64,000 bases of DNA, taken from assembly GCA_010405405.1 (NCBI GenBank), contig MU004238.1, positions 1,623,530 through 1,687,529 on the forward strand, given 5' to 3'. A program made the translations under genes and the position numbers. This document shows, in pieces, positions 6,481 to 53,196 of the stretch; within the stretch, counting starts at the first letter, position 1; every line of letters starts with the position of its first letter. Under the pieces are notes generated by a model that had not been told where the DNA came from, searched no databases, and worked only from the letters and a program-made list of their open reading frames with translations. Origin of the DNA: Microthyrium microscopicum. Its lineage: Eukaryota.

Positions 6481-7350
6481 TCAAATGAGGAAAAGACCAA
6501 ATGTAATTGCCAAAACGAGAACACCTTGCAAAGTAACAGCCGCCGATTTCGTAGCCGAGCCTTGCAGTTTTGGACCTGTAGTTGCGGCGGAACCAGGTGG
6601 GATTGATGTCTTAGATACAATCGCGTACGAGGTATATGTTGACCGCGAACCATCCGGCGCAGTCGAAGTGAAGATGGCCAAACTAGTCACCACTCCACCG
6701 CCCGGAGTGAAAGTCGTGACATATGTGCTCCCTTGCTCATTTGTAGTGGTGATCGCTACGCCGCCGTCGGAAGCCTGGGTGGGAGCCGGTACGGAGGTAA
6801 CCTGTCCATTGGACGTTAGCACGACTGCAGGAACGGAAACGGCCGTGATCACTGTCTGGCCGGCTGAGTCTGTGGTATGCGTTGTAACCACTACGGAAGC
6901 CGTGGCAGAGGACTCGGCGGTTAATGTCGTCACCACTGAGGAGCCTTGGGCGTTGGTGGTGGTTTGGGTGACGGGCACAATTACCGTTGGAGTTGTGGTT
7001 GTTACTGTCAGGTTGCCATTTTGACGGCGGATGAGGTCGTAGCGAGCGGCGGCGAGAAGTTTGGTGGCCATTGTAGGATCCGTCCTGTGCACAGCTTCTA
7101 TTGCGTTTGTGTCTTTCTCAAATATACCGTCTTTGAAGGTTGCGGGTAGGTGTTTGTGTAGGATGGAGTGGATTTGTTCGCTGGGAACGTGGTTAAGGAT
7201 TTCGCTGAAATCGCCTTCGAGTTGGACGTCGTCGGGTAGGACAGGTAATGAGGGAAGATTCAACGAGTGTGGATCTTGAGGTTGTTGCTGGAAAAAGTCG
7301 AGGTGTGCAAAGCGTAGGGAAGCGAGCAACAAGCTCTTTATGCAGGGCAT
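6481..7350 (-). CDS. Ser/Thr-rich, probably GPI-anchored cell-surface protein
   Basis: Short hydrophobic N-terminus (MPCIKSLLLASL), RR site, T/S/V-rich body, C-terminal small residues followed by a hydrophobic tail (VLVLAITFGLFLI). Start uncertain. Confidence 0.6.
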   Translation of the reverse strand: MPCIKSLLLASLRFAHLDFFQQQPQDPHSLNLPSLPVLPDDVQLEGDFSEILNHVPSEQIHSILHKHLPATFKDGIFEKDTNAIEAVHRTDPTMATKLLAAARYDLIRRQNGNLTVTTTTPTVIVPVTQTTTNAQGSSVVTTLTAESSATASVVVTTHTTDSAGQTVITAVSVPAVVLTSNGQVTSVPAPTQASDGGVAITTTNEQGSTYVTTFTPGGGVVTSLAIFTSTAPDGSRSTYTSYAIVSKTSIPPGSAATTGPKLQGSATKSAAVTLQGVLVLAITFGLFLI

Positions 7351-10300
7351 GTTGTTGATGGAGACACTACTGACTGACAAGGGACCAAGCGAACCTGGGT
7401 GGCTTGACTTGCCCCTCTAGGCTCCTGGTTGTTGGATGCAACTCGTGGCCAAATCAAGGATTGGGGTGGATTTTGGCAGACGAGGCTGAGAAGTCGGCAG
7501 GATGAGTAGAAACAGGTAAGGTCTGGTCCCAGAGTTTTGATACGGGTGGCTGACGGCCTAGTGTCGTAATGGGAATGATGTCGTCAAAGAGTATGCTTTT
7601 CTTGGGCCTAGTAGTAAGTGCTCGGAATTGTTGATGACCAAAGTTTACAAAAGTTGCAACTTTGAGGATACGAGCAGTGTTCTCCTGGGATAAAAAAAGA
7701 ACAAGGTCGAATCAGTTGATGGTCAGATATGCAGCGCTAGGGTTGGCCGGAACGTAATGGTAGCGCAGTACGAGGTGATCAATAAAAGCCGGGTGCTTTA
7801 CGGATTGCGAGCTGTATGCCTGAGATTTTTAAATCATGGGATGTGAGAATCAATGGCGTAGAAAAGAGAGATTGTGTGAGTGTGGTGTGAGTTCCAGATT
7901 CAGGAATAATAAATAGTGGGCGTGACGGGATCAAATGGAGTCGAGGAAAGTGGAACTACGGAGGGAAAGGTAAAAGGTAGAGTAAAGGTAAAAGGCAGAA
8001 GTGTATGATGATTGATAACACGCAGCACATTAGTCTAACGAGGTCCAGGTCTCCAAGACACAATCGGATGCAGGAGAGAAGCACAAAAGGCAGTCGGTTG
8101 CACCAGCTGTGTCTATCCGAGAGACAATCGTTGTGGTGGCGGTCTGGAGTTACAGATGACAGACAGTTTGAGCCAGTCAAGTGCTACTCTGGTCATGTAT
8201 GATGCCAATGCTATCCATTGTTTTGTAAGTTCGCTGGCTATCAAAGTCGCCAAATATGCCGCCTATCAAGTCCAAATCCTTACAGATATCGAACCTTCCA
8301 AAGAGGAATCTGTATTCACGACCTATTATCACATATATGATATCAGGCTAACACCAACCTTTTATGTCTTTTCTTCATCATGAACATTTCAGTCTAGAGT
8401 TCCTCGTCAATCTCACTTTGAAACTGCATGTGCCCATCTTCTAAATCATGTCGACTTGCATGTTCCACTACTTAGGTCAACACAGCAGCAGACTGTCAAC
8501 GAGTTGATGATACACGTTAAACCAGGATCCCTTGCTTCAGTTGCATCCTTGTGCACATCTCGAAAAGTCCGAGTCCTGAACCTTTAACTTTTAACCTTGA
8601 TATCCACCTCGGCAATAGCTCACCAACATTTTACTTCAGCATCCAAATGTCCATTTGTAGCTAGACATTCTTAGCGCCTGATCCCCTTGATATTCGTTTG
8701 CTTGAACATTGTATTTCTCCATCGCATAATGTGGTGCGGACTGTGGAGCCTGATGGAGTTTGCAACAAGGTGATCGACAACAGGCATGGTCTCCAGATTT
8801 CTCCCTTGTCTGTACATTGTGCCAACTTCATCCTTCAATTGCCCAGTATTGCCAGTCTATCCCAGCCGTGCATCTATCTCGCCCTTGAAAAGAACAGGTC
8901 TGGTCCAACCCACATGCTCACAAACTCACAGCTACTGGTACCATACTCGCACAGATAAGAAACCCCAACGAAAATATTGTATGCACATTGCACACTAGAT
9001 CCGTGATATTGATTAGTGAAGTATAACACTAAGATCTTCGTGTAGTAGCGTCATGCACCTCTACAACCCCCCAGCCACCCTATCATCAACAAAATATTTG
9101 CAGAATAATACGACGCCCCGCCACTTTTTTCCAATAGTATAGAACTGAACTCGAATATCTCGTGATACTGTATGAATAGTTCGTGAGAGGTCATCGAGTT
9201 TAGCTTCAATGCATAATTGCACAACACGGGTCGGATATCCGCAGAAACCGTTGCTGTTCACTGCGAGGTTCCGTGTGTTTGGTCACCGCGAGCCTCGAGC
9301 AAGTATCACAGAACCCTTCATAAAATCAAGCGATTACTCTTTCTTAGTAATGAAACCTTTGTTCGCTTCAAATAGCTCCTGCAAGGCCAACATCGCAATA
9401 TCTCTCAGCCCAGGTAGCGTGGGGCCTCGCCTTACTTCCACTGTCCAGCTGCTGCCTCCAGCACGCCAGAATTCATAGCACCGCACTCTCGTAATACTTT
9501 ACGCATTCACTTGACAACCTTCTACAGAAATATATGCCCAAGAAATCTAACAAAAGCATCCGCTTCAATCCAATAAAGCCCTCTCCTTACGCCCAACTAT
9601 CGAAACTTCACCTTCCCTCCCTTCCAATCCCATCTTCCCTAACTCATGCCCATCAAATCCATCGCCCATCTATTCATAGACCCAAAGTCCACTTTTCACC
9701 ATGCAGGACGCACAACCTGCATCACAAGTTCCCTTCTCGCCCACTATTCGTCCCGCTTCCGCATCCTCGAGGACCGTAGCACGCGTGTGTCTCAAGCTTT
9801 ACCACCAGCTCATGAGCGGCGTGTTTCATAGCAATAATAACAAGCGCTCCTTGCAGTCTAGGAGGCAAAAAGATACAGTAGTCCATGAAGTTTATACGAC
9901 CTAGATGACTAGTAGTGTGGATGTCCATCGCGTGGCAAAGCTGTTTATTTATGTAGATGGAAAGTCCACCATCCGAGCCAGGTTCGGGGACTTTTGTACA
10001 TTGAATTATTGCTATCAAGTTGCATATATGCAACATCTGATAGGAACTAATGATAATGCACACAACCACTTTCAAAAGAATACGTCGTCAAAAAGTGTGG
10101 CATCCATTACAACACCAATCGATGACGAGGAGCAGGGGAGAAAAGGTCTAGGCATATGAGAAAAAATAGTATCAAACATATATTCCCACAATGTCCACCT
10201 CAAATGAAAAAAAAGAGCCTCCTATAACACTTTTATCATTCTATTATTATTATGAGAAAAGAAAACAGCACAAAACGTGCCATATGTTGGCAATACCCAT

Positions 10301-22244: not shown

Positions 22245-23050
22245 TCAATCACGCATCGCCTCGCCTTCACTTTCCACAACCGTAGTCTTCCCCTCCGCCG
22301 CAATCCAGTACGCAACAACGCGTATCCGAAACTCCGCCATCGCTACACCAAACATCTTCAACAAACTCGTTTGATGGCTATCCAGCACCTGTCCCTCTTT
22401 ACACACCACATACTCATTATCAAGCACCACCTTGCCCTTGTCCATCTTTGTCGGCATACCCCACTTTCTTAACGTCGTCTCTACACTGTGGGGTACAGGC
22501 ACATCTTGGTCAGACGGCACTTCTCCGCCCCGTGAGTAGACGATGCCGGCGGGCACAGTAAAGGTGTGTGTGGCAGCGACGCCAGCGCGCGCAAAGTCGG
22601 TCTGAGCGTATGTGGAGAAGTAAGCGAGCACATCGGCGGGCGGGCGTGCAGTGAAGAGGAGGCCTATGTCGCCGCGCATGTGCGGTGTAAGGGTGGCGAG
22701 GCCGGGGAGGTATTCGGTTTCGGGGTCTGAGCCTAGGGATTTGGCCATGACTTTTGTTTTGCCGAAGAATATTCTAAGACTGTGAGCGGTGGGCGATCAT
22801 GGACATGGCAAGAGACATGGAGAGATATAAAAGTATCGACGGTACGGGGAAGAGCTTACCGGCTATCTGAGAACTCGGTTCTTACTTCTTTCAAGTAGTT
22901 GTTTCGCATATTTTCGACTTGAAATACGAAGACGAATGGGTACTCGTCTGCTGCCTCACGAACACCATTGTAGAGTTTTTCTGAAAGTTCTTTGCCTTTT
23001 TTCTCGACTTTGGAGAGATGTACAACCTTTGCGCGCCTTGATTTGGGCAT
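22245..23050 (-). CDS. MRT4: ribosome assembly factor Mrt4
   Basis: MPKSRRAKVVHLSKVEKKGKE, VENMRNNYLKEVR, IFFGKTKVMAKSLG, DFARAG, VCKEGQVLDSHQTSLLKMFG; one intron. Confidence 0.95.
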
Positions 23051-23350: not shown

Positions 23351-24724
23351 ATGTTGGATTTCATGGACTACATACAGCAAGCATTCTACCACTCTTCAAG
23401 ATGGAATATAGACAACTCCTACTCTGGCCTTAATGCCACAGCCCAGTGTAAGTGCCCTTGATCCCGGGTATTAACGAAAGCTCTAACGATCATGCCAGCT
23501 ATTCTCGAGTTTCCCATCCCCAAAGGCCTCCGTCTAAACGTCTCTTCCCTAGGCACACCCCATTTTAGTTCCTCCTACACCATTTCCCTCGCGGGAACCT
23601 CCGCCGGACCCGTCACAGGTCAACTCTCCTACCTTTACTCCTCTCTGCCTCTCACTGTGCCCTCGCGCAGCTCTACCATCCCCCTCTCCGCCATTGTTCG
23701 TGGCTATAGACATTTACGCCCACTACGCGCGCCTGACAACCCACGCGACTGGGAAGTCTGGCATCGTGGCCGGCGCGTCGATGAGCGCGACACACTTCTC
23801 TACGGCCGGATATTCCTTCCCACAAGCCGCCTGGAAGCGTTATGGCTACGGCGCACAACGCCAACGCAGATGCTGCAGGTTCGCGGTGTGAGTGATGCGA
23901 GTTTGCCGAATGGCGGTAGTTTGCTTGGGGTGGTACATAATGACCATGGGAAATATAGCACGGAGTATCTGTTCAGTAGCGACTCGGCCCTATTGGGCGC
24001 GCGCACGCTGTACAACGTTGGCCATGACCCGCGTCAAAAGCAAGATGATAGCTCTGAGGAGCTGATGCCGACACGCGCCGGGACAACAGCAGCATCGACG
24101 GCACCGCCAAGTTTGTTTTCGATGGGCGTGGAGGTGTATTATGGGCTGCTGAACAAGTCGGGAGGCATGTCGACAGGACTGAGGTTCACGACGCTGCCTG
24201 CATATCTCGCATTCCCGTATACGATGACATTGACGCTGAACCCACTGATGGGAAATTTAAGTAGCACGTATGCGGTCAAGGCTGGGAAGTATCTGGCGCT
24301 GAGCTCGAGGTTCGATTTCAATTTCTATAGCTATGAGAGTGGCGTGTTAGTTGGGTGCGAGCTTTGGCGGTTAAGGAAGCGTGCACCGCTGGAGCGCATA
24401 AATGATGCTGTCAAGACGTCAGAGACACCACCTAGTGCGACGATGGAGGATTTTGTGAATCCCGCTATGGATAAGGCTGCGGAGGAAGAGCAGGCTGGTG
24501 GCGGGTTGTTGAGATCATTGGGACATGGGTTCCCCTCACAAGCTCCGGCAGATGAAGATGTTGTGGGTGTGCTAAAAGCGCGCGTGGATCAAGATTGGAA
24601 GATTGGGCTGTTATGGGAGGGTCGATTTAAAGAGCTACTTTGCAGTGTTGGCGCCAGCCTGGATCTGAAGAGGCGAGAGAAGATATTTGCGGGCGTGGGT
24701 TTGGAAGTTCAATACTCGAACTGA
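23351..24724 (+). CDS. MDM10: mitochondrial distribution and morphology protein Mdm10
   Basis: Exon 1 [71 protein letters not shown]. Confidence 0.93.
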
Positions 24725-24911
24725 CTGGCGAACAACGGGAAAGCAACACTGACAAAAAACTCGAACTTTTAATTCTGGAGCCTCGAACGAAGCACATGAT
24801 ACAGCTTTCTGCACAGGAAAACAGATAGGCACTGGATGAAACAGCATGATGAATAACTCATTCCTTTCCTACGACAATCTAGTCCACGCCGTCATCAACA
24901 CAAGATACCCC

Positions 24912-25670
24912 TCAATTCAACGCCTTTTTATCGAGAATTCGACCTTCTGCCGAAACAAATGACGCATTGAACTGCACCGGAATAGCAATCGTGATGCGAT
25001 CGCGCCACTTTGCATCGCGATTCAGCAACTCCATAACCATATCACGACAATGGCCAGCATGCAGCGCGCTCTGGAATCGTGCATCAATCACCGTACCCAA
25101 CTCCCACATGCGCACATACTTTTCCCACGAGAAGATGCAGTGCGCGATATGCCAGCCATAAGTCGTCGCAAACATGTCATTGTGCTCCGCCAGTAGCTCC
25201 ACCTGGTCAATGGTCATTGGCTTGGAACCATTGGCGTTGGCGTACATTTGCCAGCTCTTGTCGGGCAGGGGTCCAGCTTCGTTGAATTGCTTGGTCAGTT
25301 CGTCGTCGCGGCAGTAAGGCGGTAGCCAAGAGGCCGATAGCCCGTCGTATTTGCAGCCGAGGGAAAGTGCTTCGGCTATGCTCTTGCCGCAGTAACACAC
25401 GCTGAGACCTGGGTCGAGCATGCGTGGGTGGCAGTCGGCTGGAGAGAAGAGGCGGTATACTTGGAAGACGAGAGACCAGAAACCCCAGAGGGCGAGGACG
25501 ATGCAGGTAATGCGGCCGACGGTGATGAGAATGCCCCTTCGCTTGATGGCGGGTGTTGGGTATGGGCTCTCTTTGAGAAGCTCTTCGTTCTCTTCGTTAT
25601 CCATGCTGAATGCTTCTTCTTCGAGGGAGGAGTATTTGGTTTTGCGAGGAATCCCGAATAGCTTGACCAT
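24912..25670 (-). CDS. membrane-anchored twin-HxxHC oxidase, DUF3328/UstYa-like
   Basis: KYSSL..E..LL N-terminus, one TM helix, CGKSIAEALSLGCKYD..SASWLPPYCRD, then WHIAHC-x25-HAGHC. Confidence 0.75.
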   Translation of the reverse strand: MVKLFGIPRKTKYSSLEEEAFSMDNEENEELLKESPYPTPAIKRRGILITVGRITCIVLALWGFWSLVFQVYRLFSPADCHPRMLDPGLSVCYCGKSIAEALSLGCKYDGLSASWLPPYCRDDELTKQFNEAGPLPDKSWQMYANANGSKPMTIDQVELLAEHNDMFATTYGWHIAHCIFSWEKYVRMWELGTVIDARFQSALHAGHCRDMVMELLNRDAKWRDRITIAIPVQFNASFVSAEGRILDKKALN

Positions 25671-26651
25671 GGTTTTGATGGGTTTCGTTGCTGCGCACTT
25701 TAATATTAGCTGCGCTGTTCGCTAAGATTGTACTATATATTATAGACTGAGGTTTGTCACATACCAAAATGTTATGCAATGCCGCTCTTCAAGATGTTGA
25801 TACTTTGAGGTTTAACTGTGTGGAGTTAGGCTTTTGGAGGGACCAAGTTGACATCAGGATGAAGTCAAATGTAATGTCATCAATCCTTTTGAAAGTTCTA
25901 GCTTCACTTTAACTTCTTAGATTTATAGCTAAGAAGGGAATAGCGCAATGGAAGCCTGGTGACTTTCACCCTTACTTCACTTTTTGAGAGCCTGAAGTCA
26001 AATATACGCATTGGTGTTTCCGCTTTTGGCTTGGAGTGCCTCGAGAGCTTTCTCGAAGCAGGTCGCCAACACTCGACCACACCTGCAATTTCTCAGCACG
26101 CAGCTAGATGATGCTCGAAGGTGCTCTCAGGTATCATGCGGTTATGCTAGCGGCAAAATAGTGAATTCTGAAACTATCCGCGACCTGAAATCTCTCAGTG
26201 ATCAAGCACGCCATGATCTCAACACCACGCTATACCACGATAGATCTGAAAAATAACGCAATACTGCCACATGGCGCCGCGTGGTCACCACGTCCTTTCC
26301 TACCGCAGAGCCTCGCTAACCTCAAGCAACGTTGACGCAATATCAATTGGCTATCATTGCTCTCGCAACCTCAACAACAGCTCGTGCAGTTGCTCACGAG
26401 CCCATACCGCCATCACATATCAACCACCTTCAGCATGACGCTAACAATCGCATCATCACAATTTCGTCACTGATCGAGGGCCTGTGCTCTGGTTCAGTTG
26501 GTATAAAGCCAAATGGATTCTCTGCCATAATTCTTCTTCTTCACCATCCTTTAAATATACTCTTCCGAACACCAACAACCATTCCACATTTTCGACCATC
26601 AAACTCTCTTACTCACTTACCTCCTTCGATCTTCTTTGATCATCTCTCATC

Positions 26652-27444
26652 ATGCATGCTCTAACCCTCTTCACCGGCTTGGCTCTTGCCTCGGCCGCCA
26701 TGTCCGCGTAAGTCTTCCAACTTCTTCACATCACCGATACCTTGCTAATACATCTCATCTCCAGACCCTTCGTAACTTGGTCTTCCGTCAAAAACTCTGA
26801 TGTCGACAAGCGTTCACCCTTCTTAACGTGGGGCGCTGTCAAAACATCTGAGGTCGACAAGCGCGATCCATTTGTGACGTGGTCATCCATCAAGGCCGAT
26901 TCTGACGCTCTTGCCAAAAAATTCGTCACGTGGTCCAGCCTCGATCAAGATCTTGACAAGGTAAGTTCTTCTGTCCAATCTTCGATGATCTTGTTCGATG
27001 ATCTTGTACTAACTTACTTGTCTCCAGCGCTTCGTAACTTGGTCTCAACTCAACTCGGAGGCCGAGTCTCTCCAAAAACGATTTGTCACGTGGTCTAGCC
27101 TCGACAAGTCCGCCGCCGCTCTGGACAAGGACACCGAGGAGCTTGCCCGTCGATTTGTCACGTGGTCCTCTCTCAAGACTGACGACGTCGAGAAGCGCGA
27201 AATCAACTACAATGACTGGAAGGCCAAGCTCTTTGGTGTTGAGAAGCGCGGCCTGGATTACTCCCCTAACGAGTGGTTGACCGCCGTCAAGCAGGAGCCA
27301 AAGCGCTTCATAACCTGGTCTTCCGTTAAGCCAACTGAGGCTGAGAAGCGCGGCGTGGATTACTCCCCTAACGAGTGGCTGACCGCCGTCAAGCAGGAGC
27401 CAAAGCGCTTCGTAACCTGGTCGTCTCTTAGCAAGGACGAATAA
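26652..27444 (+). CDS. Kex2-processed repeat protein (KEP), putative RiPP precursor, 222 aa
   Basis: Exons 26652-26707, 26765-26960, 27028-27444 (both introns GTAAGT..CTAA..CAG) join in frame. Signal peptide MHALTLFTGLALASAAMS is followed by 12 units separated by KR/KK/RR: nine F[VLI]TW cores, EINYNDW, and 2x G[LV]DYSPNEW. Confidence 0.92.
27241..27422 (+). repeat. 102-bp-period internal duplication in the KEP gene
   Basis: Copies start at 27241 and 27343; about 80 bp with 3 mismatches. Confidence 0.9.
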
Positions 27445-28940
27445 GTCAGTAAGTTTCTCCCCAGCCTTCATTTCTTCTTGGAACGTCACTAACATTTCAC
27501 AGTTCTCTTCTGCGATGACTGCTCTTCTGTAGAGCCCGGGTTGTTTGGGGGGATCGCTGGATAGGATCAGTTTTGACAGTGTGTAGTATTGCATTAGAAT
27601 TGGTACAAGGCATGTTGCGATAAATCGTCGCAACTTGAATTCCTAGGTACACTTAGTAGATCACAATAGATCTACATTTGAACGAATTTTGCTCCGTCTT
27701 TCATATGTGACGTTGACGTTTACGTTTATATGTGATGAATGATAACTTAGATCTCTGCTCTCCATTGACAAGGCTGAAGACAAGGCTGAAACATAATGGC
27801 CAGGGCAGGCACTTCAGCAAAATCAAAAGTACAAAATCAACCATTCTCCGGAAGCATTTATTGCACCACAACGAAGACATTTTTAGGAATTTTTTAACGA
27901 GTTATGGCATTATGAATTCTGCTTAATTTTAGAAGTAATCGATTATCAATCAACTATGGCTGTTAATGTTGCTCTCTAAAGTGAAGAGAAAGAGAATCGG
28001 CATATTTTTCACGTTTTTTGAACACATGAAGTTAGGAAGGTGGTCGCTAATGTAGGGCGCCTCTGCCTTACTGTCCCCAGTAATTTAGCAGGCCTCCTGG
28101 TCAACCCTGCCTCTTTATCTCAAAAAGCAAAAAATATCAGAAATCATCCATGATCATCAACTCCTACTCATCGTCAAATCATGGAAATAAAAATACTTTA
28201 GACATGCAAAAATCCATAAAAATCCATAAAAATCTAAAGTCCTATTTGGCTTCTTCTGAATGCTAACATATGGCTGATTGCGGTGTGAATAAGTGATTTT
28301 GGATTTTTGGATTTTTGGTGAAGCGGCCGCCATGAGACGTCTGTACGAAGTAGACTCAGATATTCTCATCGAACTAACGGCAAGGCACTTGCGTAAGTCT
28401 ACCCAACAGCAAGCAAGAAGGCGCGGCGAAATAAAAATGCTGTTGTATATTGATTGCTCAAGTATTTCCTTGAGATGCTGGCTCATTTTTGTAGTCCCAC
28501 TAACGATCTCGACAATTCCATGAAAGATTGGGCGTGTAGATGACCTTCGACTCCAATCTCTGATCCCAATTCCATGAAACGCGAGATCCAAATTGTAAAT
28601 ATCTCTTAACATTTCCCCGAGAGCAAGCCGGCTGGCTGCAAGCACAGCGCAGAAACAGTGCATTGAAGCACCCAGTGTAAATTCCCAGTGCACATTGGTC
28701 AAGGCATTTGTCCGTGATATCGGAGAGGCGTCTCGCAGTCAAAATGAACCAAACTGCGGCCTATGTCCAAAAGTCTCAGATCCAAAATCTCAGGCTTGAG
28801 CAGAACCGCCATTTCCACCAAATGCCTCATGTAGTATGATCACTGAGCGAAAACGCTGAGTGAACCATCCAGAATCTTCAACTGTCTCCCTCCCATTTCC
28901 AATTCCCTTATCATCCAGCGCACCACCAAAAGATATCAGC

Positions 28941-31039: not shown

Positions 31040-31057
31040 ATCCATCAATCTCCAGAA

Positions 31058-31543
31058 ATGCCCGCCGACACAAACCCAAATCCAACAAATGCCCTACCCT
31101 CCCCCTCAACACCTTTGACAGCACGAACGCCTCTCCCACCACCTGCCCCAACAGTGACCCTCGACGACATCAATCCGTACCTTCTCGATGTCGTCCCACA
31201 AGTCGAGCGCCTCATCAACCGCGTCCTGCTACCTGCGCCTCCTCCCGGCTCAACTCCTACACCCATCACCAACAACACCGTCGTGCCCACAACTGGCCAT
31301 CTGGACACTGCGAACCTCGAAGCAGCTGCGAACCCGTTACGGGTAAACATACAGAAGAGCCAAGAAATGCTTAAGCAATTGCCGGACATGGATCGCAGTG
31401 TGGAAGATCAGCAGGCGGAGATCAAGTGGTTGGAGGAGCGAATAGGGAAGATGGTGGGGATGTTGGGCGGATTGCGGGATAGTGCAGATGCGGGTGCGAG
31501 AGAGCATCGTGAGAGGGATGGGCAGGGCAATGGGCAGGTATGA
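31058..31543 (+). CDS. MED9: Mediator subunit 9 (Cse2/Med9)-like
   Basis: LEAAANPLRVNIQKSQEMLKQLPDMDRSVEDQQAEIKWLEERI matches the Med9 LPD..RS.E.Q..EI..LE pattern. Confidence 0.75.
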   Translation: MPADTNPNPTNALPSPSTPLTARTPLPPPAPTVTLDDINPYLLDVVPQVERLINRVLLPAPPPGSTPTPITNNTVVPTTGHLDTANLEAAANPLRVNIQKSQEMLKQLPDMDRSVEDQQAEIKWLEERIGKMVGMLGGLRDSADAGAREHRERDGQGNGQV

Positions 31544-31774: not shown

Positions 31775-33133
31775 TCAAAGCGTGACTCCATCCAACTGCC
31801 TCGTTCCCTCAACGCCTTCCATCCTCTGGTCCCCATCCAATTGCCCCGTTCCCTCAACACCCTCCATCTGCTCCGGCCCTGGTCTCGCTTCAGCAGGAAT
31901 TGGCGGTGCCCCCTTCCCGGGTTCCCTACTCTTTGCGCCATCCATCAACTTGCCCGCGGCTCCCTGGCCCGCTCTCAACTGGTTAATTGCACGAATCGTA
32001 TCGATTGCCGCGTGCAACTTGACCCTTGCATTAAAGTTCTTGCGCACCGTCGGCAACAGATCCTTCTTCTCCGTGGTCTCCATCGAAGCCGCATCTGCGC
32101 CTGCGCTTGTAGCATCTTGCTTGATCCATGGATGGCTGAGCGCTTCGTGGGCCGTCATGCGACGCGAAGGCTCGACGGTGAGACAGCGGTCGATAAAGGT
32201 TCGTGCTGTGTCAGAGACGCCGCGCCAGTACTCGGCGGGCTTGTAGTCGTAGTCGGCTTCGAGAATGGCTTGCATTTCTTCGAGGTTGGAGTCGCGATCA
32301 AAGGGGGTATAGCCGCAGAGGAGGAAGTATGTTATTACACCAATGGCCCAGATATCGCTGTGAGAACGTTAGAGTCAGGGGCAATGGTGGTATATAAGGG
32401 TACATACACCGGTTTTCCATGGCCGCTCTTTTTGAATATTTCGGGGGCCATGTACCCAGGTGTACCGCAGGTTGTTGTTAGAACGTGGAATTGTTCTTCG
32501 TCCATTATACGAGAAAGACCAAAGTCAGCGATCAACAGGTCGGCATTGTCTTCAGGGGTGCGGAAGAGGAGGTTTTCGGGTTTGAGGTCGCGATGTACTA
32601 TGCCGTGGTCGTGAAGGTATGCGACAGCGGAGAGTACGGCGCGTACGAGATCTGCAGCGTCGCTTTCGAAATATGATCCTTTTCGGCAGATTCGATCAAA
32701 GAGTTCGCCGCCAAGTGCTAGATCCGTGACAAGATATACTTTTCAAATGTCAGCGCCGCAGCATTTTATGATATATATTCCGTCCTACAATTATTCATGG
32801 TCTCAAAGTAATCCACGAGAGTCAATATATTTCTGTGACCCATAGACACCTTTTTCAAAACAGCAATTTCGTTGCGAACCTGGCGCATAATCATGTTAGC
32901 TTACGCTGATTCTGTATGACATTGGGTGGGCCGATAAGTGATCATACCATATGCTCTCGTCCTTGCATCAACCTCTTGTTGATAACTTTGGCGGCATAAT
33001 ATCGTCCAGATTCGATATGTACACATTCTTTAACGACAGAGTATGATCCAGCGCCTAGAGTTTTTCCCGTCTTGTATCGACACGGCTGGACTTGGGCGGC
33101 GGTCTTTGAGGCAGGTGGTTGTGGTGAGGCCAT
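31775..33133 (-). CDS. cmkB: Ca2+/calmodulin-dependent protein kinase (CmkB type)
   Basis: VQPCRYKTGKTLGAGSYSVVKEC, IVHRDLKPENLLF, IADFGLSR, TTTCGTPGYMAPE, CaM-binding FNARVKLHAAIDTIRAINQLR; 3 introns. Confidence 0.92.
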
Positions 33134-34063
33134 GGCGAGGAGAGAATCCTCAAGGCTGGTAGGGTAAATATGCTAGGAGACGAAGACTCGTGAGAATAGG
33201 ATACTGAGAGGAGTAACCACAGATTTGGGGGCGCAAAGAAGTTAGGTTGTGGTGTTGGTTGAGGGATATGCAATCAACGCTTTGGTGGTTTGCAGGGAGC
33301 TTTTTGGTGGGGCAGGAGGAGCCAGCAAGCGGGAGTGGGGCGAGACAAAAAGCAATCCCTGGTCAACTTCGAAAAGGGGTAAAAATCAGGGACTCAGGAT
33401 GCTCCAACTTCATCCCTTCTTCTTTACCTTGAAATGTAAACAAGCTCACCTCTCCACCTAATGTACCTATTTTCTCGTTCTGCATCGGGCCGGTTTCCCG
33501 ACCTGTCACTTTGACATGTAAACTGACTCAAGTAGCCTTTATATTGAATTGACCATGGCAGGTAGCGCGACAAAAAGGCCCGATAGCTTTGCATATCAAC
33601 GGCCCAACTCAACACCACAGTAATCTCAACATGCGGATTACACAATAGGATCCAGTACCAAACACGTTCAATGAAGAGTACACCAGATTGATTCTCGGAC
33701 CTGGACTATTCAAATCATGGTACAGATCACGTTATACATCAGTTTATTCGTCATGCAGATACAAGCCAGCAGAACAAAAGCCTTGCCGACCCCAGATTTT
33801 TAGCTCACAGCCTTGTCATGCTGGCGTTCAGCCTCATGTGTTTCGAAAAATGCTAGCCAAATCAATACTGTGGAAATGATCGAGACTTGGAACCATTTAT
33901 GAAAAGTCTAGAATCTAAGTACAACTCCCATCGAAATCAAGGTACTCCCAAAATTTACTTCTTCAGAAAACAAAACACTCGTTCCACTTCTTACACCTAG
34001 GATGCTTATTTCCATTCCACTCTTTACCTAAGTTATCATTACCTTCACTACTACAAGTCTACA

Positions 34064-34832
34064 ATGAGATCGTCTCATCTTCTCGCTCTCGCTGGCTGTG
34101 CCGCAGCAGTACCACTGACCTTGCCAAATGCATTTCCTGTCTTGTCGTTCCCTATCCTACGAACTAGATCCAGCAAAGCATCAGCTCCAGCCGCCCATAC
34201 AACCTGCACACCCCAACCAAGCACTGGCGGCAACACCGAAAATGGCGTCGTCAACAAAAACTGCTGCACCGACGTGACCGTCATATTCGCTCGCGGAACC
34301 GTGGAGCCTGGCAACGTAGGCTACTTCACTGGCCCGCCTTTCATTGCTGCCCTGCGCAAGCAAATCGGTGCAAGCCGTGTTACTGTGCAAGGAGTCGAGT
34401 ATCCTGCTACTACCACTGTAAGTTCACCTTCCTTGATTATACTTCCTAAAAGTCGACTGACAGGCGCAGACACTGGCAACAGGCGGCGGCGTCGGCCCAG
34501 CGAATATGGCAGCGGACGTGAAGCAAGCGTTGTTACAATGCCCCAATACAAAGATCGTGCTTTCTGGATATAGTCAGGGCGGAGAGGTGGTTCATAATGC
34601 GTTTAAGCAGGGTATTACAGCATCGCAGATTGCTGCAGCGGTTATGTTTGGCGATCCGTATAATGGGCAATCGGTGGGCGGGTTGGCACCTGCTGTTGTT
34701 AAGGAGTATTGTGCGGCAGGGGATGTTATTTGTAATGGATCGGGATCTTTTGTTATTACTGAGGCTCATTTGAGTTACGCAAATGACGCGAGTGATGCGG
34801 CGGCGTTCATTGTCAAGACTTTGGGATTGTAA
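34064..34832 (+). CDS. secreted cutinase (CE5)
   Basis: Signal peptide; IFARGT, GYSQG, FGDP, GDVIC, AHLSY; one intron from 34418. Confidence 0.92.
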
Positions 34833-35026: not shown

Positions 35027-36674
35027 TTACAACTGCGACCAAAGCTTTGGCTTGCGGGTTTGTGGTCTTGCCGCTTTCTTCTCAGGCATTCGATCTTTTG
35101 ACTCCTCCAGTTTTGGTTTACTCGCCTCTCCTAGATTTTGGCTGTTTGTGTCTGCGCCATTCTCGCTTTCCCTCTGTTCCGTCTCTTCCGTTTCGGCCTT
35201 ATCTTCTCCGTTCATTTGTTCCTCTTCGTTGAATCTTTCTTTGGCTCCTTCTTCGGCGTCCATTTGTTCCTCTTCTTTGACTCCTTCTTTTGCTCCGTCT
35301 GCTGCTTTTGCTTCGTTAACCTGTTCATTACCCACTTCTTCCCTTGCTGACCTGATCTCATCCGTTTTGCCCGCAAGCCTCATATCGCCGTTAAGCCAGT
35401 GCCATGCAACCGTACGTGTCTCAGGAGACCGGCTGTGCAACTTTTTGGCACGCATGAACCGGTAGAAGGTTCCATGTCCAGAGGTTTTGAGCCATTCCCT
35501 TTGCTCTGGGGTCAACATGGGAAATCCATCTGGACCATATAGTGGTTGGGCGATATTTGCTGGCTGAGGGACATCTGCTGGTTGAGGGACATCTGCTGTT
35601 TGGGGGACATCTGCTGGTTGAGCGACATTTGCTGGTTGAGCGACGTCTGCTGGTTGAGCGACATCTGCTGGCTGAGCGACATCTGCTGGCTCAACGGCCT
35701 CTTGTGCTTCAACGACCTCTTGTGGTTCATCTACCTCTTGCGACTCAGCAACCTCTGCCGCGACTTCATCATCGATTTGCCGAGTCTCAATTCTATCGCG
35801 CAGATCCAAGGTATTAGTATCTTGATTCATGTCGTCTTGCGGTACATGAACTGAAATTGCACTGTTCTGAGCAGCACATTTTAGACCTGCGCCATCATCA
35901 GCAGCTGAAATTATCTCAAGCGAGACAATTATACGCTCACCTCGCGACCAGCATGCACTTTCAGCAGAACTTATCGTATGTGGTCTTCGCAAACACGACT
36001 TTGTCCACTTGGGACCATGTGGATATTCCAAGAGCTTCAAGATGCGCGAAATGGGTTGGTCCTTGGAAGATACTTCACCTGAAACACTCTTATCAGAGGC
36101 GCCTCCATCAGAAGCAGTTCCATCTGAGGCATCGTCGTCCGAGCCATGTTCATATAGAGCAGTCTCATCTTCACCATCTTCACCTATCGCATCTTCCACC
36201 AAATCAGCTTCCTCCATCGCAGCAACATACTCCCTCGTAACCGGATCTCTAAGGCCAAGTCCCAAGCTACCTTCCACGCACACCGGCGCGAAGTCTGGAG
36301 CCTTCGAAGCAATGATATTGAAACGTAGTGAAGGAACATGGAGAACGTTGTGTAGAACCAAAGAGTGAGATGCATTCGGCAGCCATCGGTATGGAGTCCT
36401 TTGGACTGGTATCTCCACAGTGCCAACCGCTATAACTTTGTGTTTATTAAGGTTGAAGCACTGTCTTCTAGATCCAATCAAGGTATAGGACCCTGGAGTA
36501 AACCAGTCTCTGTCATTGGTTGCACTGGACCTGTTAGTTTGGGTATTGGGGTGGAGGTGCTGGAACTAACTGGAAGTAGTCTTTGGACGAGACGACCCAA
36601 TCTGGATTCAGCGGGACTGGGAAGTCCGTCCAGTCCATTCGTTTTGGATGTCTTGTGGAGATATTATCCGACAT
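35027..36674 (-). CDS. protein with degenerate Ty1/copia protease-like (Pol beta-barrel) N-terminal domain and acidic/repeat tail
   Basis: Exon 1 (36674-36571) and intron 36570-36525 give PDWVVSSKDYFHATNDRDWF..VIAVGTVEI..LVLHNVLHVPSLRFNII. Confidence 0.6.
35543..35692 (-). repeat. 18-bp coding tandem repeat, 8 units (QPADVA/QPADVP)
   Basis: Directly visible, e.g. ACATCTGCTGGTTGAGCG repeated on the + strand. Confidence 0.95.
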
Positions 36675-45913: not shown

Positions 45914-46964
45914 ATGTCAATTCTCTCTGTTCTAGTGAGCGGGCTCGCTCTTGCTAGCAGTGTTGCAGCTGCTCCTCAACTCGCGTTTGGATCGGCCTCC
46001 GGTGTAGTAGCAGGAAAATGCACAGAGCAAAGCTGTTTGGCTGCGGATGTAAGCGGATCAACTGGCAATCTACCGACAGCTAAGCCGGTGGGTGGCTCGT
46101 AAGTTAGACTTGACATGAAATGTTGTCTCAAAGAGAGCATATGCTGACCACGAAAACCAGAGCATCCGGATGGGTCTGCGTTTCGAAATACAATCCCGCT
46201 GCAAAGGAGTCTGTTGAAAAGAATACCCCTAAGAGTAAAGGATTTGGTGGTCTCTTCGGCAAGGGCGCCTACGTTGAGTTTGAAGAGAGACCAAGTACTC
46301 TCAACGATGCAGCTGCTCTCGAGGGCCGCGTTATCCAGAAGCGTCAACTGCTAGGTGGTCTTTTCGGCGACGGAGCACAGAAATATACTGCTAGATGTAC
46401 ACCCAACATCCTTCTTTTCGCCAAAGGAACTCTTGAGACTGGAGAGCTCGGTATCACAGTCGGCCCAGCATTGAAGGCTGCTTTGGCCTTGTCTGGAGGA
46501 AGCTCATGGACTATGCAAGGTGTGAGCTACACAGCTACTATGGACAACGACTACTGCGTTGGCCTTCCCGGTGGAATGATTGCAAAAGGGTTGCTTGAGT
46601 CTGCGGCTGAGAAATGCCCCGAGGCCAAGATCTTTACCTCCGGCTACTCCCAAGGTGCTATGGTCGCTCGTATTGCTGTGGCTTATGCCAACGAAACCGC
46701 AAGGAAACAAGTCAAGGTATGCATATGGTAACATGACGTGGAGAAGAAAGGCTAATTTCTGATAAGGGAATCCTCGTCTATGGAGATCCATTCAACGGCG
46801 CCAAAGTCAAGGGTTGGGATGGACCTATCAAGACATTCTGTCGTGAATCCGACGCTGTCTGCACTGGTGCATTCAAGATCGGTACTGCTCACTTGTCTTA
46901 TTCTCTAAGCAGCGATGTCACCAATGGGTTGGCATGGCTCATTAAGACCGCGAAGGCCTCTTGA
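45914..46964 (+). CDS. secreted cutinase-family (CE5) protein with N-terminal extension
   Basis: Signal peptide; LLFAKGT, GYSQG, YGDP, DAVC, AHLSY; 2 introns. Confidence 0.88.
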
Positions 46965-49894: not shown

Positions 49895-52800
49895 ATTTAC
49901 TATAGATTACTAAATAATTAATCCTATACGCAAATTATGATATTATTTAATGTAATTAATATAGGATGTGCCTATAGTACTATTCTATAACTAGTATCAA
50001 TTTTAGTAATTAATATTAACTTTTAGGGTGTGATCCTATGTAGTAATTAAGTTGCATAGAATATACAAAAATTGCAAAATCTCTTAATTTTAATAATAAC
50101 TAGAACTATCTAAAGTAAATAATATCTAAATTTTATAGTAAATATAGTAAACGACGCGTACGCTCTTATATTATATGTTAGGAAGCGTTAAAGTCCTAAA
50201 TAGTTAGTAGTACTTTAAGATTAATATCTTCATCGTTAGAACTAGCTAAAGACTAATATTCTTTATTAGTAATTATATCCAAATTATTTAGCGCTTTATT
50301 ACTATGGCGTACTTTAACAAGATCTATAGGAAGCTAAGGAAGAGTAAGAAGCTATAAATTAGGACACTATTTAATTAATATATCTCTCTCGTAATTGTAC
50401 TTAGGGCGATTAATTCCTATACCTAAAAGGTTACTAAAATACTACTACTAAGGGTAGGTTTAAGGGCAATACTACTATAGTAGAGCAAGATCTTTAAACT
50501 ATAGTAGTAGTAAGTAATTTTAATAGGGATCTGCCTATTCGTACCTTTATATCTTTATTATCTCTTCGTCCTTAGTAGCGCGCATATTTAGAGGCTTAAT
50601 TTCTTCCTTTTTAACTCTTATTTTACGCTTCTTCTTTAATAGCTAAGATCTCTTAGCTACTACCACCTAAGATACTTAAACGAGAGTAATTTTAGGCTTA
50701 GAATCCTTAAGATCTACGAGTTATAAAGCTTTTAAAGCTTTCTTAATAGTAGCATTCTTTCGTCTTATAATAATACCCTAAAGATTAGTCTAATTCTAGT
50801 TAGTAGCCTTCTTAAACGACTCAACGGTAAAGTAATGGAAGAGAGAGGGATAGACGTAATCATAGAGAGCGAGTTAATAAAGAAGCTATGGATCTATAAT
50901 ATAAGGTCGAATTCTATGCTAGGTATTTAGTAATTCTGACGAGCTTATAATATTACGATCTTAAAGGTCTGTAGCGTAGATAAATCTACCTTTTTAAGTC
51001 TATTTCCTAGATCTAGATTTTATCTATTTATTGTGAAGTTAAGCTAGATATAAGTTAAAGTAATAATTAATTAATTACGTATAGAGAGAGGCTATTGCTT
51101 TAGTAGCTATTAGGAACGTCTTCCTATTTATTCTTCTCTATCGCTATAGATCTATAGGAACTAGAGATGCTAAAGAACGATCCTATAATTGTACCTATGT
51201 TAATATCTCTTTAAAGATCGTTAAATACGCTAGAGGAAGCTAAATCTTAGGTAATTCTATAGCTTTAAGTATTATAGCACGTCTTCTAAACTTCTAAGTC
51301 TTCCTATTCTAATTAGGGTATGTTTTTAGGCCTGCTAAAGGATCTACTATAGGTATGCAATTAAGTATTAGATAAAGATTAAAGGGTACTATTCCTATAC
51401 GTCTCTAGGTACTCTTAATGTTATTTTTAGTAAAGGTTTAAGATCTAATATGCTTAATTACGATAAAGAAGTATTATTTATTAAAATTAATAATTCCTTA
51501 ATAGGCGTAGGTATTAATTACCTCTAAATATTAGTGTTTTTATAGTTAAAAGATACCAACATCTAATAGTTATAGGAAGTGCGTTAAATATAGAGGTAGA
51601 AGTAATAATTTAATCTTATTTAGCTTATAGAATAGTATAAACTAGTAGGTAAGATAGCTTTCGTATTCGTTAATTATTAGAAGCTGCTAGTAAGCCTTTT
51701 TTCGTGCTTAATCCTTTAGCTAGTGTTGCTTTAAGAGTCATTAAAAATGCTATATCTAGATAAATCCTAGGTAGTTATTTGAATAACTACTATCTAACAC
51801 TACTATAGCGAAGTTAGTACTCTAGATTTAGTAGTTTTAAAGCTATTAACTTATTAATCACGATATCTCCTAATATAAGTCTATTAAACCAAGATTTTAA
51901 GATAATACAGCCTTTAGTAATAAGAAGAGGCGTAATAGTTCTTCTACTAGTAGAATAGGCTTTTACGGATATTAAATTCTCTTAATTATTGAGCGATTTA
52001 ATATAATTATAATAGCTACTAAAGAACTCGCGATTATTAGGCATAACTACTATCTAGCCTCTTCCTATACTAATTTAAACGTTTATTTTATCTATATTCT
52101 ACTAATCTTTGGTTAGAATGTTGTATTTATTAATTATCTCTTTATAATCTTAATAGAACTTAGTAATGGCATCTTTATTCATTGCCTACTTGCGAGTAGC
52201 TTTAATAGTAGGTTAAAATCGTAGAGCAAAAGATAAGCGCTTTATCTAACGGCGAGCTTATTTTAAGCTAACTTAAGGTCAATTTTAGAAGGGAATTTTA
52301 TCAATATTGAGAATGTCTCGTTATAGGATCTTATTTGCAGTATTCTATATAAGCTTAACCTAAATAAGGACCCTAATCTTTGCTATAAGGTCAAGATATT
52401 GCTTTAGGGTGCTTTCTTACGCTTTAGAGAGCTTTTATTAGTTTAATTTACGTAAAGAATAAGATCTAGCACGACTAGTATATCGCTAGTAGAGTCATTT
52501 AGGTAGAATTAGAGAGAATTTGGCGGCTAGGGTATTCTATGTAGTTTTAGGCTAATTATCTTTAAATTTTATAGCTTTTTTAATAGTCGTTTCTTTATCT
52601 ATATAAAACGCGCGATTTTGCTTCTTTTGCTAGGTTTTTAAAGGTATATTAGTAGTAGTAGAAATAATTGTTAAAGTAGTAAATTATTAAAAGAGCTAGA
52701 ATTATTATGTTATAGGTAGTAGAACTAGGACTACTTCATTATATAAAGTTAGATTTACTAAGAGGGCCTAAGCGTTAGATTCCTATTTATTATAACTACT

Positions 52801-53121
52801 TTGCTAAAAGTATATATTATTTTCTAAAAATTTAGTAGTGTGTTTAGACGGGTATAAATAAAGTTTAGTAAAAATATGAAAATTATTTAATAGTTAGTTA
52901 CTAAGTAGTTATAAAGAACGTATAGAAATCTAGAAATACCGACCTAATCCTAAGTTAAACTAATGATACTCAACTATTCATACTTTAGCTAGATTTTAAG
53001 ATATAATTCTTAAAATAATATAGGATTTATAGCTCAAGCTATGGAATATAATCCCTCTTTTAAAATTTAAAAATATCACGTTTTAGCTACATGGTAGCTA
53101 TATAAAGCAAAGGGTACAGAA

Positions 53122-53196
53122 AGAGTCCTCGTTGAGGTGTCCTCCTCGTTGAGGTGTCCCCAATCGCCTACGGCGATCGTGTTCTTAACCGATGGG
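53122..53196 (-). repeat. right TIR
   Basis: Reverse complement of 49820-49894. Confidence 0.95.

Follow-up and report, generated by a model that had tools for sequence, protein, structure and literature searches.

Fungal RiPP genome mining keys on Pfam DUF3328/UstYa genes beside Kex2-repeat precursors, and the locus described here raises the question of whether such a precursor may have its oxidase in a neighbour which escapes the Pfam model. Within the window (the whole 64-kb stretch of Microthyrium microscopicum DNA that was analysed), the gene for a Kex2-repeat precursor (KEP) is paired with one for a membrane protein bearing two HxxHC motifs, and the first-pass annotation had taken the two for an undescribed RiPP system with a DUF3328-like oxidase. 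The dikaritins (ustiloxin, phomopsin and asperipin-2a; also victorin and the epichloecyclins) share with the window a signal peptide followed by multiple Kex2-delimited core repeats, together with a neighbouring gene for a single-TM protein that has two HxxHC motifs, and asperipin-2a, which needs only one such oxidase (PMC7329392, PMC9233826), resembles it further in having a single oxidase of the twin-HxxHC type. However, the window oxidase fails the PF11807 model, and no tyrosinase, methyltransferase, peptidase or transporter lies near the pair. In dikaritins an aromatic side chain of the core is joined to an aliphatic residue. The known cyclisations proceed via Tyr, or via Phe in victorin (PMC7329392, PMC9233826), whereas the main core in the window has Trp and no Tyr. 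With moderate confidence, we interpret the two genes as an ascomycete RiPP locus of a dikaritin-like kind, in which a Pfam-invisible, UstYa-like oxidase probably modifies Trp cores.

The repeat precursor

The precursor gene is arranged as follows:

26652-27444, + strand: KEP precursor gene, three exons, spliced product of 222 aa (translation)
26652-26707, + strand: exon 1, signal-peptide-like N-terminus of 19 residues (predicted from sequence)
26708-26764, + strand: intron 1, predicted, GTAAGT...CAG, 57 nt (sequence)
26765-26960, + strand: exon 2, units 1-4 with four F[VL]TW cores (translation, repeat analysis)
26961-27027, + strand: intron 2, predicted, GTAAGT...TACTAAC...CAG, 67 nt (sequence)
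27028-27444, + strand: exon 3, units 5-12 and the stop codon (translation, repeat analysis)

Translation bore out the three-exon gene, the signal peptide and the 12 dibasic-delimited units which the first-pass annotation had described, the ATG falling at 26652, one base to the left of the figure given there, and the TAA stop at 27442-27444. Without splicing, exon 1 runs into an immediate in-frame TAA; intron 2 contains a TACTAAC branch site, and its predicted removal rebuilds a K|R site in the precursor. The N-terminus is a hydrophobic stretch of 19 residues ending in a small-residue, A-x-A-like site (the signal peptide was called by eye), after which 11 dibasic sites (KR/RR/KK) recur periodically to give 12 units. 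There is one Trp in every unit (12 W in 203 residues), and 9 of the 12 contain F[VIL]TW, mostly as F[VIL]TW-S-S; in exon 3, five units have an F[VI]TW core, two resemble each other closely and contain ...YSPNEW..., and one contains ...NYNDW.... The main core thus holds Phe and Trp without Tyr, Tyr being present in three minor units.

All nine copies of F[VIL]TW found in the six frames of the 64-kb window lie in the precursor, and their DNA varies synonymously, including switches between TCN and AGC serine codons; this variation shows that selection has acted on coding in the forward frame, and chance is ruled out as its source. In sequence terms, then, the precursor is a genuine Kex2-repeat precursor (KEP sensu Umemura 2020). 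A glutamine-rich stretch elsewhere in the window (35515-35730) was also considered as a repeat precursor and rejected as low complexity.

The first-pass view that the core is undescribed has held: neither FVTW in connection with Kex2 nor FVTWSS is mentioned in the literature searched, subscription-only papers aside, and FVTW is absent from the available text of three supplements of the KEP survey PMC7329392. The cores which the first-pass annotation lists for known dikaritins did not turn up in the review PMC9233826. Using exon 3 (138 aa) as the query, no relatives of the precursor were found at E<=0.01 and its own product was missed too; as the homology queries were single exons rather than the spliced protein, this blank is weak. 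Pfam searches with exons 2 and 3 gave chance-level rows only.

The twin-HxxHC partner and its likeness to UstYa

The partner gene and its surroundings comprise the following:

24912-25670, - strand: CDS of the twin-HxxHC membrane protein, 252 aa, single exon, stop included (translation)
25446-25541, - strand: predicted transmembrane helix, residues 44-75 (AlphaFold model, pLDDT about 97)
25137-25151, - strand: first HxxHC, HIAHC, residues 174-178, on helix 171-191 (sequence, alignment, model)
25047-25061, - strand: second HxxHC, HAGHC, residues 204-208, on helix 202-216 (sequence, alignment, model)
25671-26651, no strand: divergent intergenic region between precursor and HxxHC gene, 981 nt (sequence)
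22248-22796: MRT4-like L10 protein, neighbour
23462-24721: MDM10, 384 bits, housekeeping neighbour
31040-31540: Med9, neighbour
31778-32742: protein kinase, neighbour

The coordinates confirm that the two genes lie head-to-head with 981 nt between their ATGs, and both are intact. A TATAAA element (26501-26506) precedes the ATG of the precursor by 146 nt, and we infer that the intergenic region may act as a promoter common to both genes. The setting among housekeeping genes with no transporter or tailoring gene nearby, as first claimed, agrees with the ORF scan, in which 85 ORFs of >=110 aa in the window yielded no gene for a transporter, methyltransferase, tyrosinase, peptidase or PF11807 protein (85 of the 91 listed, the six omitted overlapping the precursor or the HxxHC gene).

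The partner (252 aa) is, as the first reading had it, a single-TM protein with HIAHC and HAGHC (modelled helix 44-75), and the spacing HxxHC(x)25HxxHC gives it the twin motif by which UstYa/DUF3328 proteins are defined (HIAHC at 174, HAGHC at 204; PMC12435403, PMC12048977). A word-indexed protein search with the oxidase returned only itself and one 40%-identical protein; the family emerged from an exhaustive HMMER search, in which 1477 representatives scored E<=1e-3, 533 of them <=1e-10 and 38 <=1e-30. H177, C178 and C208 are invariant in an alignment of 70 of these sequences, and H174, H204 and H207 are conserved in >=90%. The named members are 'hypothetical proteins' of Stictis, Nemania, Xylariales and Aspergillus flavus, and no description of the family was found in the literature searched on DUF3328/UstYa, subscription-only papers aside. 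Judged by these homology searches, the partner belongs to a large unannotated ascomycete family. One clade carries long Met/His-rich (D/E/S)MHP(E/S) tails; arrays of this motif beside several family members had been considered as KEPs, and were rejected as the C-terminal tails of the family protein itself. Weak DinB_2 rows (E 0.077 for the window protein; 5/70 relatives) were put down to chance or to noise from the His motifs.

The label 'DUF3328-like' survives in part. It is borne out by the motif and the predicted architecture, but a comparison of the oxidase with PF11807, by which the first-pass annotation had suggested that it be checked, gave no match at E<=1, which leaves the protein below the gathering cut-off of 25 bits. 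Against the same model, 20 of 149 relatives were sub-threshold (14-21 bits, E 3e-4 to 0.05), one was above the cut-off and 128 gave nothing, with nearly all the sub-threshold rows at profile positions ~105-190, the HxxHC region. The sole relative over the cut-off, P0150, is a two-domain model, either a fusion or a merge, with a UstYa and a partner-family domain. An hhalign comparison of the family (70 sequences) with only four true UstYa ORFs, which came from metagenome loci, gave a probability of 2.7% (E 0.017) over 43 columns confined to the two HxxHC motifs. The nearest named ESM-Atlas cluster is UstYa (rank 18, score 0.84), which is a lead only. Given the lack of a PF11807 match and the 2.7% from hhalign, 'DUF3328-like' here means a likeness of motif and architecture and not demonstrated homology; the family appears sister-like to UstYa and invisible to the Pfam model. 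Put in terms of a dikaritin locus, defined as a KEP with a DUF3328-family gene, a twin-HxxHC gene adjoins the KEP but fails PF11807, and no PF11807 gene was found in the 64-kb window.

Close points of comparison are CctR, ApnU and AprY, DUF3328 enzymes with binuclear copper whose biochemistry has been characterised (PMC12435403), although these belong to a different sequence family and the substrate of CctR is an NRPS product rather than a KEP (PMC12435403). On prediction, the window protein shares with them HxxHC(x)nHxxHC on two adjacent helices and a lumenal helical domain preceded by a disordered N-terminus and one TM helix. The AlphaFold model of the partner (pLDDT 80.4) has such a disordered N-terminus, the TM helix at 44-75 and the motifs on helices 171-191 and 202-216; it matches the architecture in the published description of CctR, with which it was compared without superposition. 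In contrast to these enzymes, the window protein and its family have an extra conserved lumenal segment before the helices, which is Cys-rich (C92, C94, C106, C120) and includes a W-L-P-P motif.

The window protein also shares with these enzymes a predicted homodimer held by the TM helix and a motif-bearing four-helix bundle. Its predicted homodimer scored 0.50 against 0.27 for the best control, and the runs shared >=85% of contacts (partner pLDDT >=76). Among proteins solved as one-chain pairs, 21 of 30 attained the dimer mark, against none of 23 solved as single chains; on eukaryotes, the corresponding figures were 17/29 and 0/30. The predicted interface (residues 55-67, 172-190 and 201-223) consists of the TM helix and the two HxxHC helices. 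Searches by sequence found no solved structure for either the partner family or UstYa, and the dimer score is therefore unlikely to reflect a memorised structure. Foldseek with the partner model against the PDB gave nothing at E<=1e-3, and the best Z that VIA-align reached against 48,161 chains was 3.4, the matches being mostly of single helices; these fold searches show neither a new fold nor any relation.

Linkage to repeat precursors and readings of the locus

A context-blind pattern scan yielded 65 metagenome loci with family members, which reduced to 38 non-redundant clusters, 22 of them evaluable in that they had a locus of >=5 kb (220.6 kb in all). A signal-peptide repeat precursor was found <=6 kb from a family member in 11 of the 22, namely eight classical dibasic KEPs with >=4 repeats, one small KEP with two and two monobasic precursors. 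From the published density of 5.25 KEPs per ascomycete strain (PMC7329392) and an assumed genome of ~35 Mb, ~0.03 would be expected by chance. The pairing of a KEP with a conserved twin-HxxHC protein, as first proposed, thus gains support from other fungi. Precursor and family member are directly adjacent in L007 and L057, like in the window, and the head-to-head arrangement recurs in L007. Several loci have two or three family paralogues, and nearby genes include Zn2Cys6 regulators, MFS transporters, a sulfotransferase, an acyltransferase and a LanC-like gene. Of the 11 clusters with a precursor, four also have PF11807 ORFs above the cut-off: L007 (two), L022, L045 and L062.

The protein of the window falls in a clade with L001, L017 and L022 (tree support 99/97), where a precursor is present in four of the six members whose flanks are long enough for a verdict. 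Trp occurs in the cores of each of these four precursors, those of the relatives being V-P-W, S/A-W-E and K-W-S-F beside the F-V-T-W of the window. For the family as a whole, the remaining 11 evaluable clusters lack a repeat precursor and the KEP label is scattered on the tree (9 changes, no better than shuffles), and hence the family is not dedicated to KEPs.

If the locus works as a dikaritin-like RiPP system, the precursor would enter the ER via its signal peptide and be cut by Kex2 at the KR/RR/KK sites in the Golgi, and the neighbour would be a type-II-like single-TM protein whose lumenal domain presents HxxHC(x)25HxxHC on two adjacent helices. Acting like DUF3328/UstYa proteins, it would form a disulfide-stabilised homodimer with a binuclear copper site, use O2, and oxidise the Trp-containing cores, by hydroxylation or by a side-chain cross-link, in the secretory pathway either before or after Kex2 cleavage. 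Its family often lies clustered with repeat precursors and with further members of the family, and in some loci beside true UstYa genes.

The most serious competitor, which we nevertheless regard as rather unlikely, is that an ordinary KEP gives rise to unmodified linear secreted peptides (signalling, pheromone-like or effector), with the HxxHC neighbour acting elsewhere or handling copper in the secretory pathway and its adjacency being coincidental. Linear KEP products such as the alpha-factor-type pheromones have the same precursor architecture. An ascomycete genome has ~5 KEPs, the majority with no Pfam-DUF3328 gene beside them; only 22% of the 7878 KEPs surveyed have a DUF3328 partner, and many of the other 78% are thought to be linear (PMC7329392). 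The family clusters without a precursor, the Met/His-rich tails of one clade, which suggest metal handling over peptide tailoring, and the lack of any other tailoring, peptidase or transporter gene in the window point the same way. However, linkage in 11/22 clusters against ~0.03 expected is hard to ascribe to coincidence, the head-to-head arrangement is seen again at L007, and the Trp core is common to all four precursors of the window's clade. Moreover, the DUF3328 genes, whose products the window protein resembles in motif and architecture, are most frequent directly beside KEPs, and in the survey pheromone KEP genes are without DUF3328 genes alongside, with three exceptions (PMC7329392), whereas a twin-HxxHC gene directly adjoins the KEP of the window.

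We also know of no resemblance between the window core and the ascomycete alpha-pheromone motif.

It is improbable, in our judgement, that the HxxHC protein is an accessory to a classical UstYa (as copper donor, scaffold or second-step oxidase) and that the window is the remnant of a larger cluster without a product of its own. True PF11807 genes flank the family member and precursor in L007, L022, L045 and L062, where UstYa could be the real partner; P0150 unites the two domains in one predicted protein, and the MHP-repeat tails would fit copper supply. On the other hand, both genes of the window are intact, and no PF11807-type ORF was seen in the scanned ORFs of L001, L017, L023, L031 and L057, nor in the window, in a scan which could miss intron-split exons and genes beyond the 6-kb flanks (L041 was checked by a twin-HxxHC motif scan only).

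The dikaritin-like reading, with the partner as the oxidase of its own precursor, can be extended to the family as a whole: more tentatively, it is possible that this is a large, Pfam-undetected branch of the fungal binuclear-copper peptide oxidases and that at least the window's clade has specialised on Trp Kex2-repeat cores. Were this so, the locus would give rise to a new class of fungal RiPPs in which tryptophan is oxidised or cross-linked, comparable to the burpitides of plants, and part of the 78% of fungal KEPs counted as unaccompanied would have a dedicated oxidase. The BURP-domain cyclases of plants cross-link side chains in repeated-core ribosomal peptides in a copper-dependent manner (PMC12186524); they offer an analogy only, for a copper enzyme acting on a Trp core, as they are an unrelated protein family from another kingdom. 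Plant burpitide cores are often fused to the cyclase, and among the fungal loci a comparable fusion occurs only in L027, in which an unclassified twin-HxxHC domain is fused to the precursor itself. A partner family of ~1500 sequence clusters escapes the Pfam model on which current mining relies, and should the family prove to oxidise peptides, the search for fungal peptide natural products would widen and would take in Trp-based cores, which dikaritin chemistry is not known to include. The pair of genes, as a minimal system, is suited to a direct test by heterologous expression.

Transcript-like contigs over the locus

Contigs of one sequencing run, X1, cover the locus apart from 25957-26178 and 27410-27700; it was the only run found, and its RNA nature is the tool's guess ('RNA?'). 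The single contig over the precursor gene (record 2), possibly RNA, does not confirm the predicted forward-strand splicing, as it retains intron 1 and skips 26952-27017 (66 nt with CT..AC ends) instead of predicted intron 2. Such ends are the signature of a minus-strand GT..AG intron, and the contig looks antisense, the strand being deduced from the splice dinucleotides only. The feature would be:

26179-27409, - strand: possible antisense transcript with a 66-nt GT..AG intron, 27017-26952 (X1 records 2 and 3)

That the locus is chiefly a non-coding antisense unit, its forward-strand KEP gene silent or not expressed as modelled, would account for this splicing pattern and for a contig that starts upstream of the TATA-like element, but we consider it very improbable, as the synonymous codon variation, the intact frame over two canonical introns and the signal peptide all speak for selection on the forward frame, the antisense ORF matches no Pfam family, contigs lose rare variants, the RNA nature of X1 is itself a guess, and antisense RNA is compatible with sense mRNA under other conditions. 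Over the HxxHC gene, one X1 contig spans 24800-25956 without a joint.

The repeat precursor and its divergent neighbour

The two genes of the pair, and a possible transcript running across one of them, are arranged as follows.

26652-26707, 26765-26960 and 27028-27444, + strand: precursor gene, three exons (gene model)
25670-24912, - strand: coding sequence of the twin-HxxHC partner, 252 aa (translation)
26179-27409, - strand: possible antisense transcript across the precursor, 66-nt intron at 27017-26952 (X1 contig)

Translation of the spliced model bore out the three-exon gene of the first-pass annotation, with its signal-peptide-like start and 12 dibasic-delimited units, and that of the minus strand bore out the partner with HIAHC (residues 174-178) and HAGHC (204-208); the 981 nt placed between the genes were also correct, but the precursor ATG is at 26652, one base from the 26653 first given. 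Both introns run GTAAGT...CAG and the second carries a TACTAAC branch site. The predicted product (222 aa) opens with 19 hydrophobic residues, after which 11 dibasic sites delimit the units, each containing exactly one Trp (12 W in 203 residues). F[VIL]TW stands at the start of, or inside, nine of the 12, usually followed by S-S, and the remaining three hold ...YSPNEW... (two, near-identical) or ...NYNDW... (one). No further F[VIL]TW occurs in any of the six reading frames of the window (64 kb). The DNA copies of the nine repeats vary synonymously (TTC/TTT, GTA/GTG/GTC, ACT/ACG/ACC) and their serine codons alternate between TCN and AGC, which shows that the + frame peptide is under selection. 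The relaxed detector also applied to the metagenome loci below found no second Kex2-repeat protein (KEP) in the other 60 kb, where it returned a single Q-rich low-complexity stretch.

X1, a sequencing run whose contigs can be called RNA only as a guess, contains 78% of the sampled words. Its record 1, which ends in adapter sequence, covers 24800-25956 without a joint and therefore holds the HxxHC coding sequence uninterrupted. Record 2 covers 26179-26951 and 27018-27307, retains + strand intron 1 and omits 66 nt with CT..AC ends. These ends, together with the lack of any further difference across 2.2 kb, favour spliced minus-strand RNA over a deletion in the strain; going by the two dinucleotides, record 2 looks like spliced antisense RNA, the ORF of which matched no Pfam family. 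The + strand splice model is not confirmed by record 2, nor is it contradicted, because contigs drop rarer forms.

The partner family, UstYa and the predicted structure

The partner had been described as DUF3328-like, yet it gave no match to UstYa/DUF3328 (PF11807) in Pfam at E<=1, and by the UstYa family's own test its sequence is not that of a member. An exhaustive HMMER search returned 1477, 533 and 38 relatives at E<=1e-3, <=1e-10 and <=1e-30, counted as representatives of 50%-identity clusters, the closest non-self relative sharing 42% identity. Named members (Stictis, Nemania, Xylariales, Aspergillus flavus) are all "hypothetical protein" without any precomputed Pfam domain. Across a 70-member alignment C92, C106, W115, C120, W140, H177, C178, W182 and C208 are invariant, and C94, H174, H204 and H207 are kept in at least 90%; both HxxHC motifs and the Cys-rich segment before them are therefore constrained.

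Kinship to UstYa is suggestive only. In the ESM Atlas ranking 17 unnamed Ascomycota clusters come first, and UstYa is the first named cluster (rank 18, score 0.84). Sub-threshold PF11807 alignments, found for 13 of 70 relatives in one set and 20 of 149 in another, lie nearly all over profile positions ~105-190, the twin-HxxHC region. Only one of the 149, P0150 (474 aa), exceeded the cut-off, with a genuine UstYa C-terminal domain (77 bits) followed by a family domain; either the fusion is natural or gene prediction has merged two neighbouring genes, and in both cases UstYa and the new family are immediate neighbours in that genome. When the family was compared by hhalign with UstYa, represented by just four true ORFs recovered from metagenome loci, the motifs alone aligned (2.7% probability, E 0.017). 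No solved structure was found for any relative in either family.

An AlphaFold model of the partner, built on the 70-sequence alignment (pLDDT 80.4; core >90), has residues 1-43 disordered, one long TM helix (44-75) and then a compact domain with the HxxHC motifs on consecutive helices, 171-191 and 202-216. This predicted architecture is that described for the DUF3328 hydroxylase CctR: a cytosolic disordered N-terminus and a single TM helix lead to a helical domain in the lumen, in which HxxHC(x)nHxxHC on paired helices forms a binuclear copper site (PMC12435403). Residues 40-245 modelled as a homodimer scored 0.50 against 0.27 for the best control, with at least 85% contact agreement between runs and a partner pLDDT of at least 76; the score is the model's confidence and not a measurement. 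Among proteins with solved structures, 21 of 30 one-chain pairs attained that mark, against 0 of 23 single chains (among eukaryotes, 17/29 and 0/30). The predicted interface comprises TM helix 55-67 and HxxHC helices 172-190 and 201-223. On these models the partner would face the lumen and act as a dimeric oxidase that depends on copper and O2, its copper binding and catalysis being putative.

Linkage to repeat precursors across the family

Metagenome contigs were scanned context-blind with a pattern around the first HxxHC, yielding 65 loci that encode relatives and fall into 38 clusters at 90% identity. Linkage was judged in the 22 clusters that have a locus 5 kb or longer (220.6 kb altogether), the other 16 being too short. 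A repeat-peptide precursor was present inside the 6-kb flanks in 11 of the 22 and none was seen there in the other 11. Chance would supply ~0.03 KEPs in 220 kb, taking 5.25 per ascomycete strain from a KEP survey (PMC7329392) and an assumed genome size of ~35 Mb. Classical dibasic KEPs of four or more repeats account for eight of the 11 (L001, L007, L017, L023, L027, L045, L057, L062), L041 has a small KEP of two repeats, and the spacers in L022 and L031 are monobasic; in most, a signal peptide lies in the same ORF or an upstream exon. At L007 the precursor and the family gene stand head-to-head like the window pair, with a few hundred bases between them, and at L057 they are ~0.7 kb apart.

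The metagenome loci look like gene clusters. Several have two or three family paralogues. A scan of 53 of the 121 ORFs of at least 130 aa from the ten KEP-bearing loci other than L041 also showed Zn2Cys6 regulators and MFS transporters nearby, as well as one sulfotransferase, one acyltransferase and one LanC-like gene. PF11807 ORFs exceeded the cut-off at L007 (two), L022, L045 and L062, and no classical UstYa gene was found among the ORFs scanned at the remaining KEP-bearing loci.

The LanC-like gene (L023:2528-3691, - strand; PF05147, 82 bits) is flanked by two twin-HxxHC paralogues and lies 4 kb from a nine-repeat KEP; such proteins are not known as components of fungal RiPP clusters. At L027:933-2773 (- strand), more than 16 Kex2-delimited ..P-P-W-Y-R-A-S.. 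repeats continue in-frame into a 190-aa C-terminal domain that has two HxxHC motifs (HQYHC and HVIHC) and no match to PF11807 or to the family profile. This frame may encode a precursor fused to an oxidase, an arrangement that recalls the BURP-domain precursors of plants.

A maximum-likelihood tree was built from 34 family domains, two of 36 representatives being dropped as shorter than 120 aa. The KEP label is scattered over it (9 changes, no better than shuffles), and linkage to precursors is therefore family-wide and incomplete. The window protein sits on a long branch in a supported clade (99/97) with L001, L017, L022, L054, L037, L004 and L012. All four precursor-linked members (window, L001, L017, L022) have Trp in their cores: F-V-T-W in the window, and elsewhere ..V-P-W.. 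and ..V-L-W.., ..E-[AS]-W-E.. and ..E-K-W-S-F-S-S. In the whole set Trp occurs in 6 of 12 linked precursors, against 20-25% of KEP repeats in the survey (PMC7329392); the counts are small.

Another well-supported clade (99/95) carries a long C-terminal (D/E/S)-M-H-P-(E/S) repeat array of up to ~60 copies, fused directly to the family protein or following after a gap.

L018:5446-6945, + strand: MHP-array member
L032:1-1548, + strand: MHP-array member
L024:5746-6657 and 7444-7899, + strand: MHP-array member
L009:5842-6657 and 7208-7750, + strand: MHP-array member

No KEP was seen at these four loci. The Met/His-rich tails suggest copper capture, which would be consistent with a copper enzyme.

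Comparison with dikaritin clusters and the surrounding window

The locus probably works like a dikaritin cluster, a KEP adjoining a twin-HxxHC membrane protein that is a putative oxidase. It has only one twin-HxxHC gene, as does asperipin-2a, for which a single such oxidase gene suffices (PMC7329392). Unlike dikaritin clusters, its putative oxidase falls outside PF11807, its main core has Trp and Phe without Tyr, and it has no other tailoring gene. The openly accessible literature searched made no mention of this core or of this sister family, and the core was absent from those supplements of the KEP survey (PMC7329392) that were examined. On the boldest reading, the family would be a branch of copper peptide oxidases that Pfam misses, and one of its clades would act on Trp cores.

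The suggested minimal two-gene cluster fits what is visible. The window has 91 ORFs of 110 aa or more, and a Pfam scan of 85 of them (the omitted six overlap the two genes) found no PF11807 gene near the pair, nor any tyrosinase, methyltransferase, peptidase or transporter there, and a motif scan found no other twin-HxxHC ORF in the window. The housekeeping setting was likewise recovered, with an MRT4-like L10 protein, MDM10 (384 bits), Med9, a protein kinase, cutinases, pescadillo and other housekeeping genes. Further features were noted in passing.

34001-34829 and 46114-46728, + strand: two cutinase genes, 12 kb apart
35030-36565, - strand: ORF of 512 aa, weakly matching a retroelement Pol beta-barrel and containing a P-A-D-V-A-Q repeat run
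61548-63998, - strand: NRPS fragment (Condensation and PP-binding), running off the window end, 34 kb from the pair

At 50001-54000 the G+C falls sharply to 0.29-0.35, against ~0.47 elsewhere, and this stretch may be repeat DNA degraded by repeat-induced point mutation (RIP).
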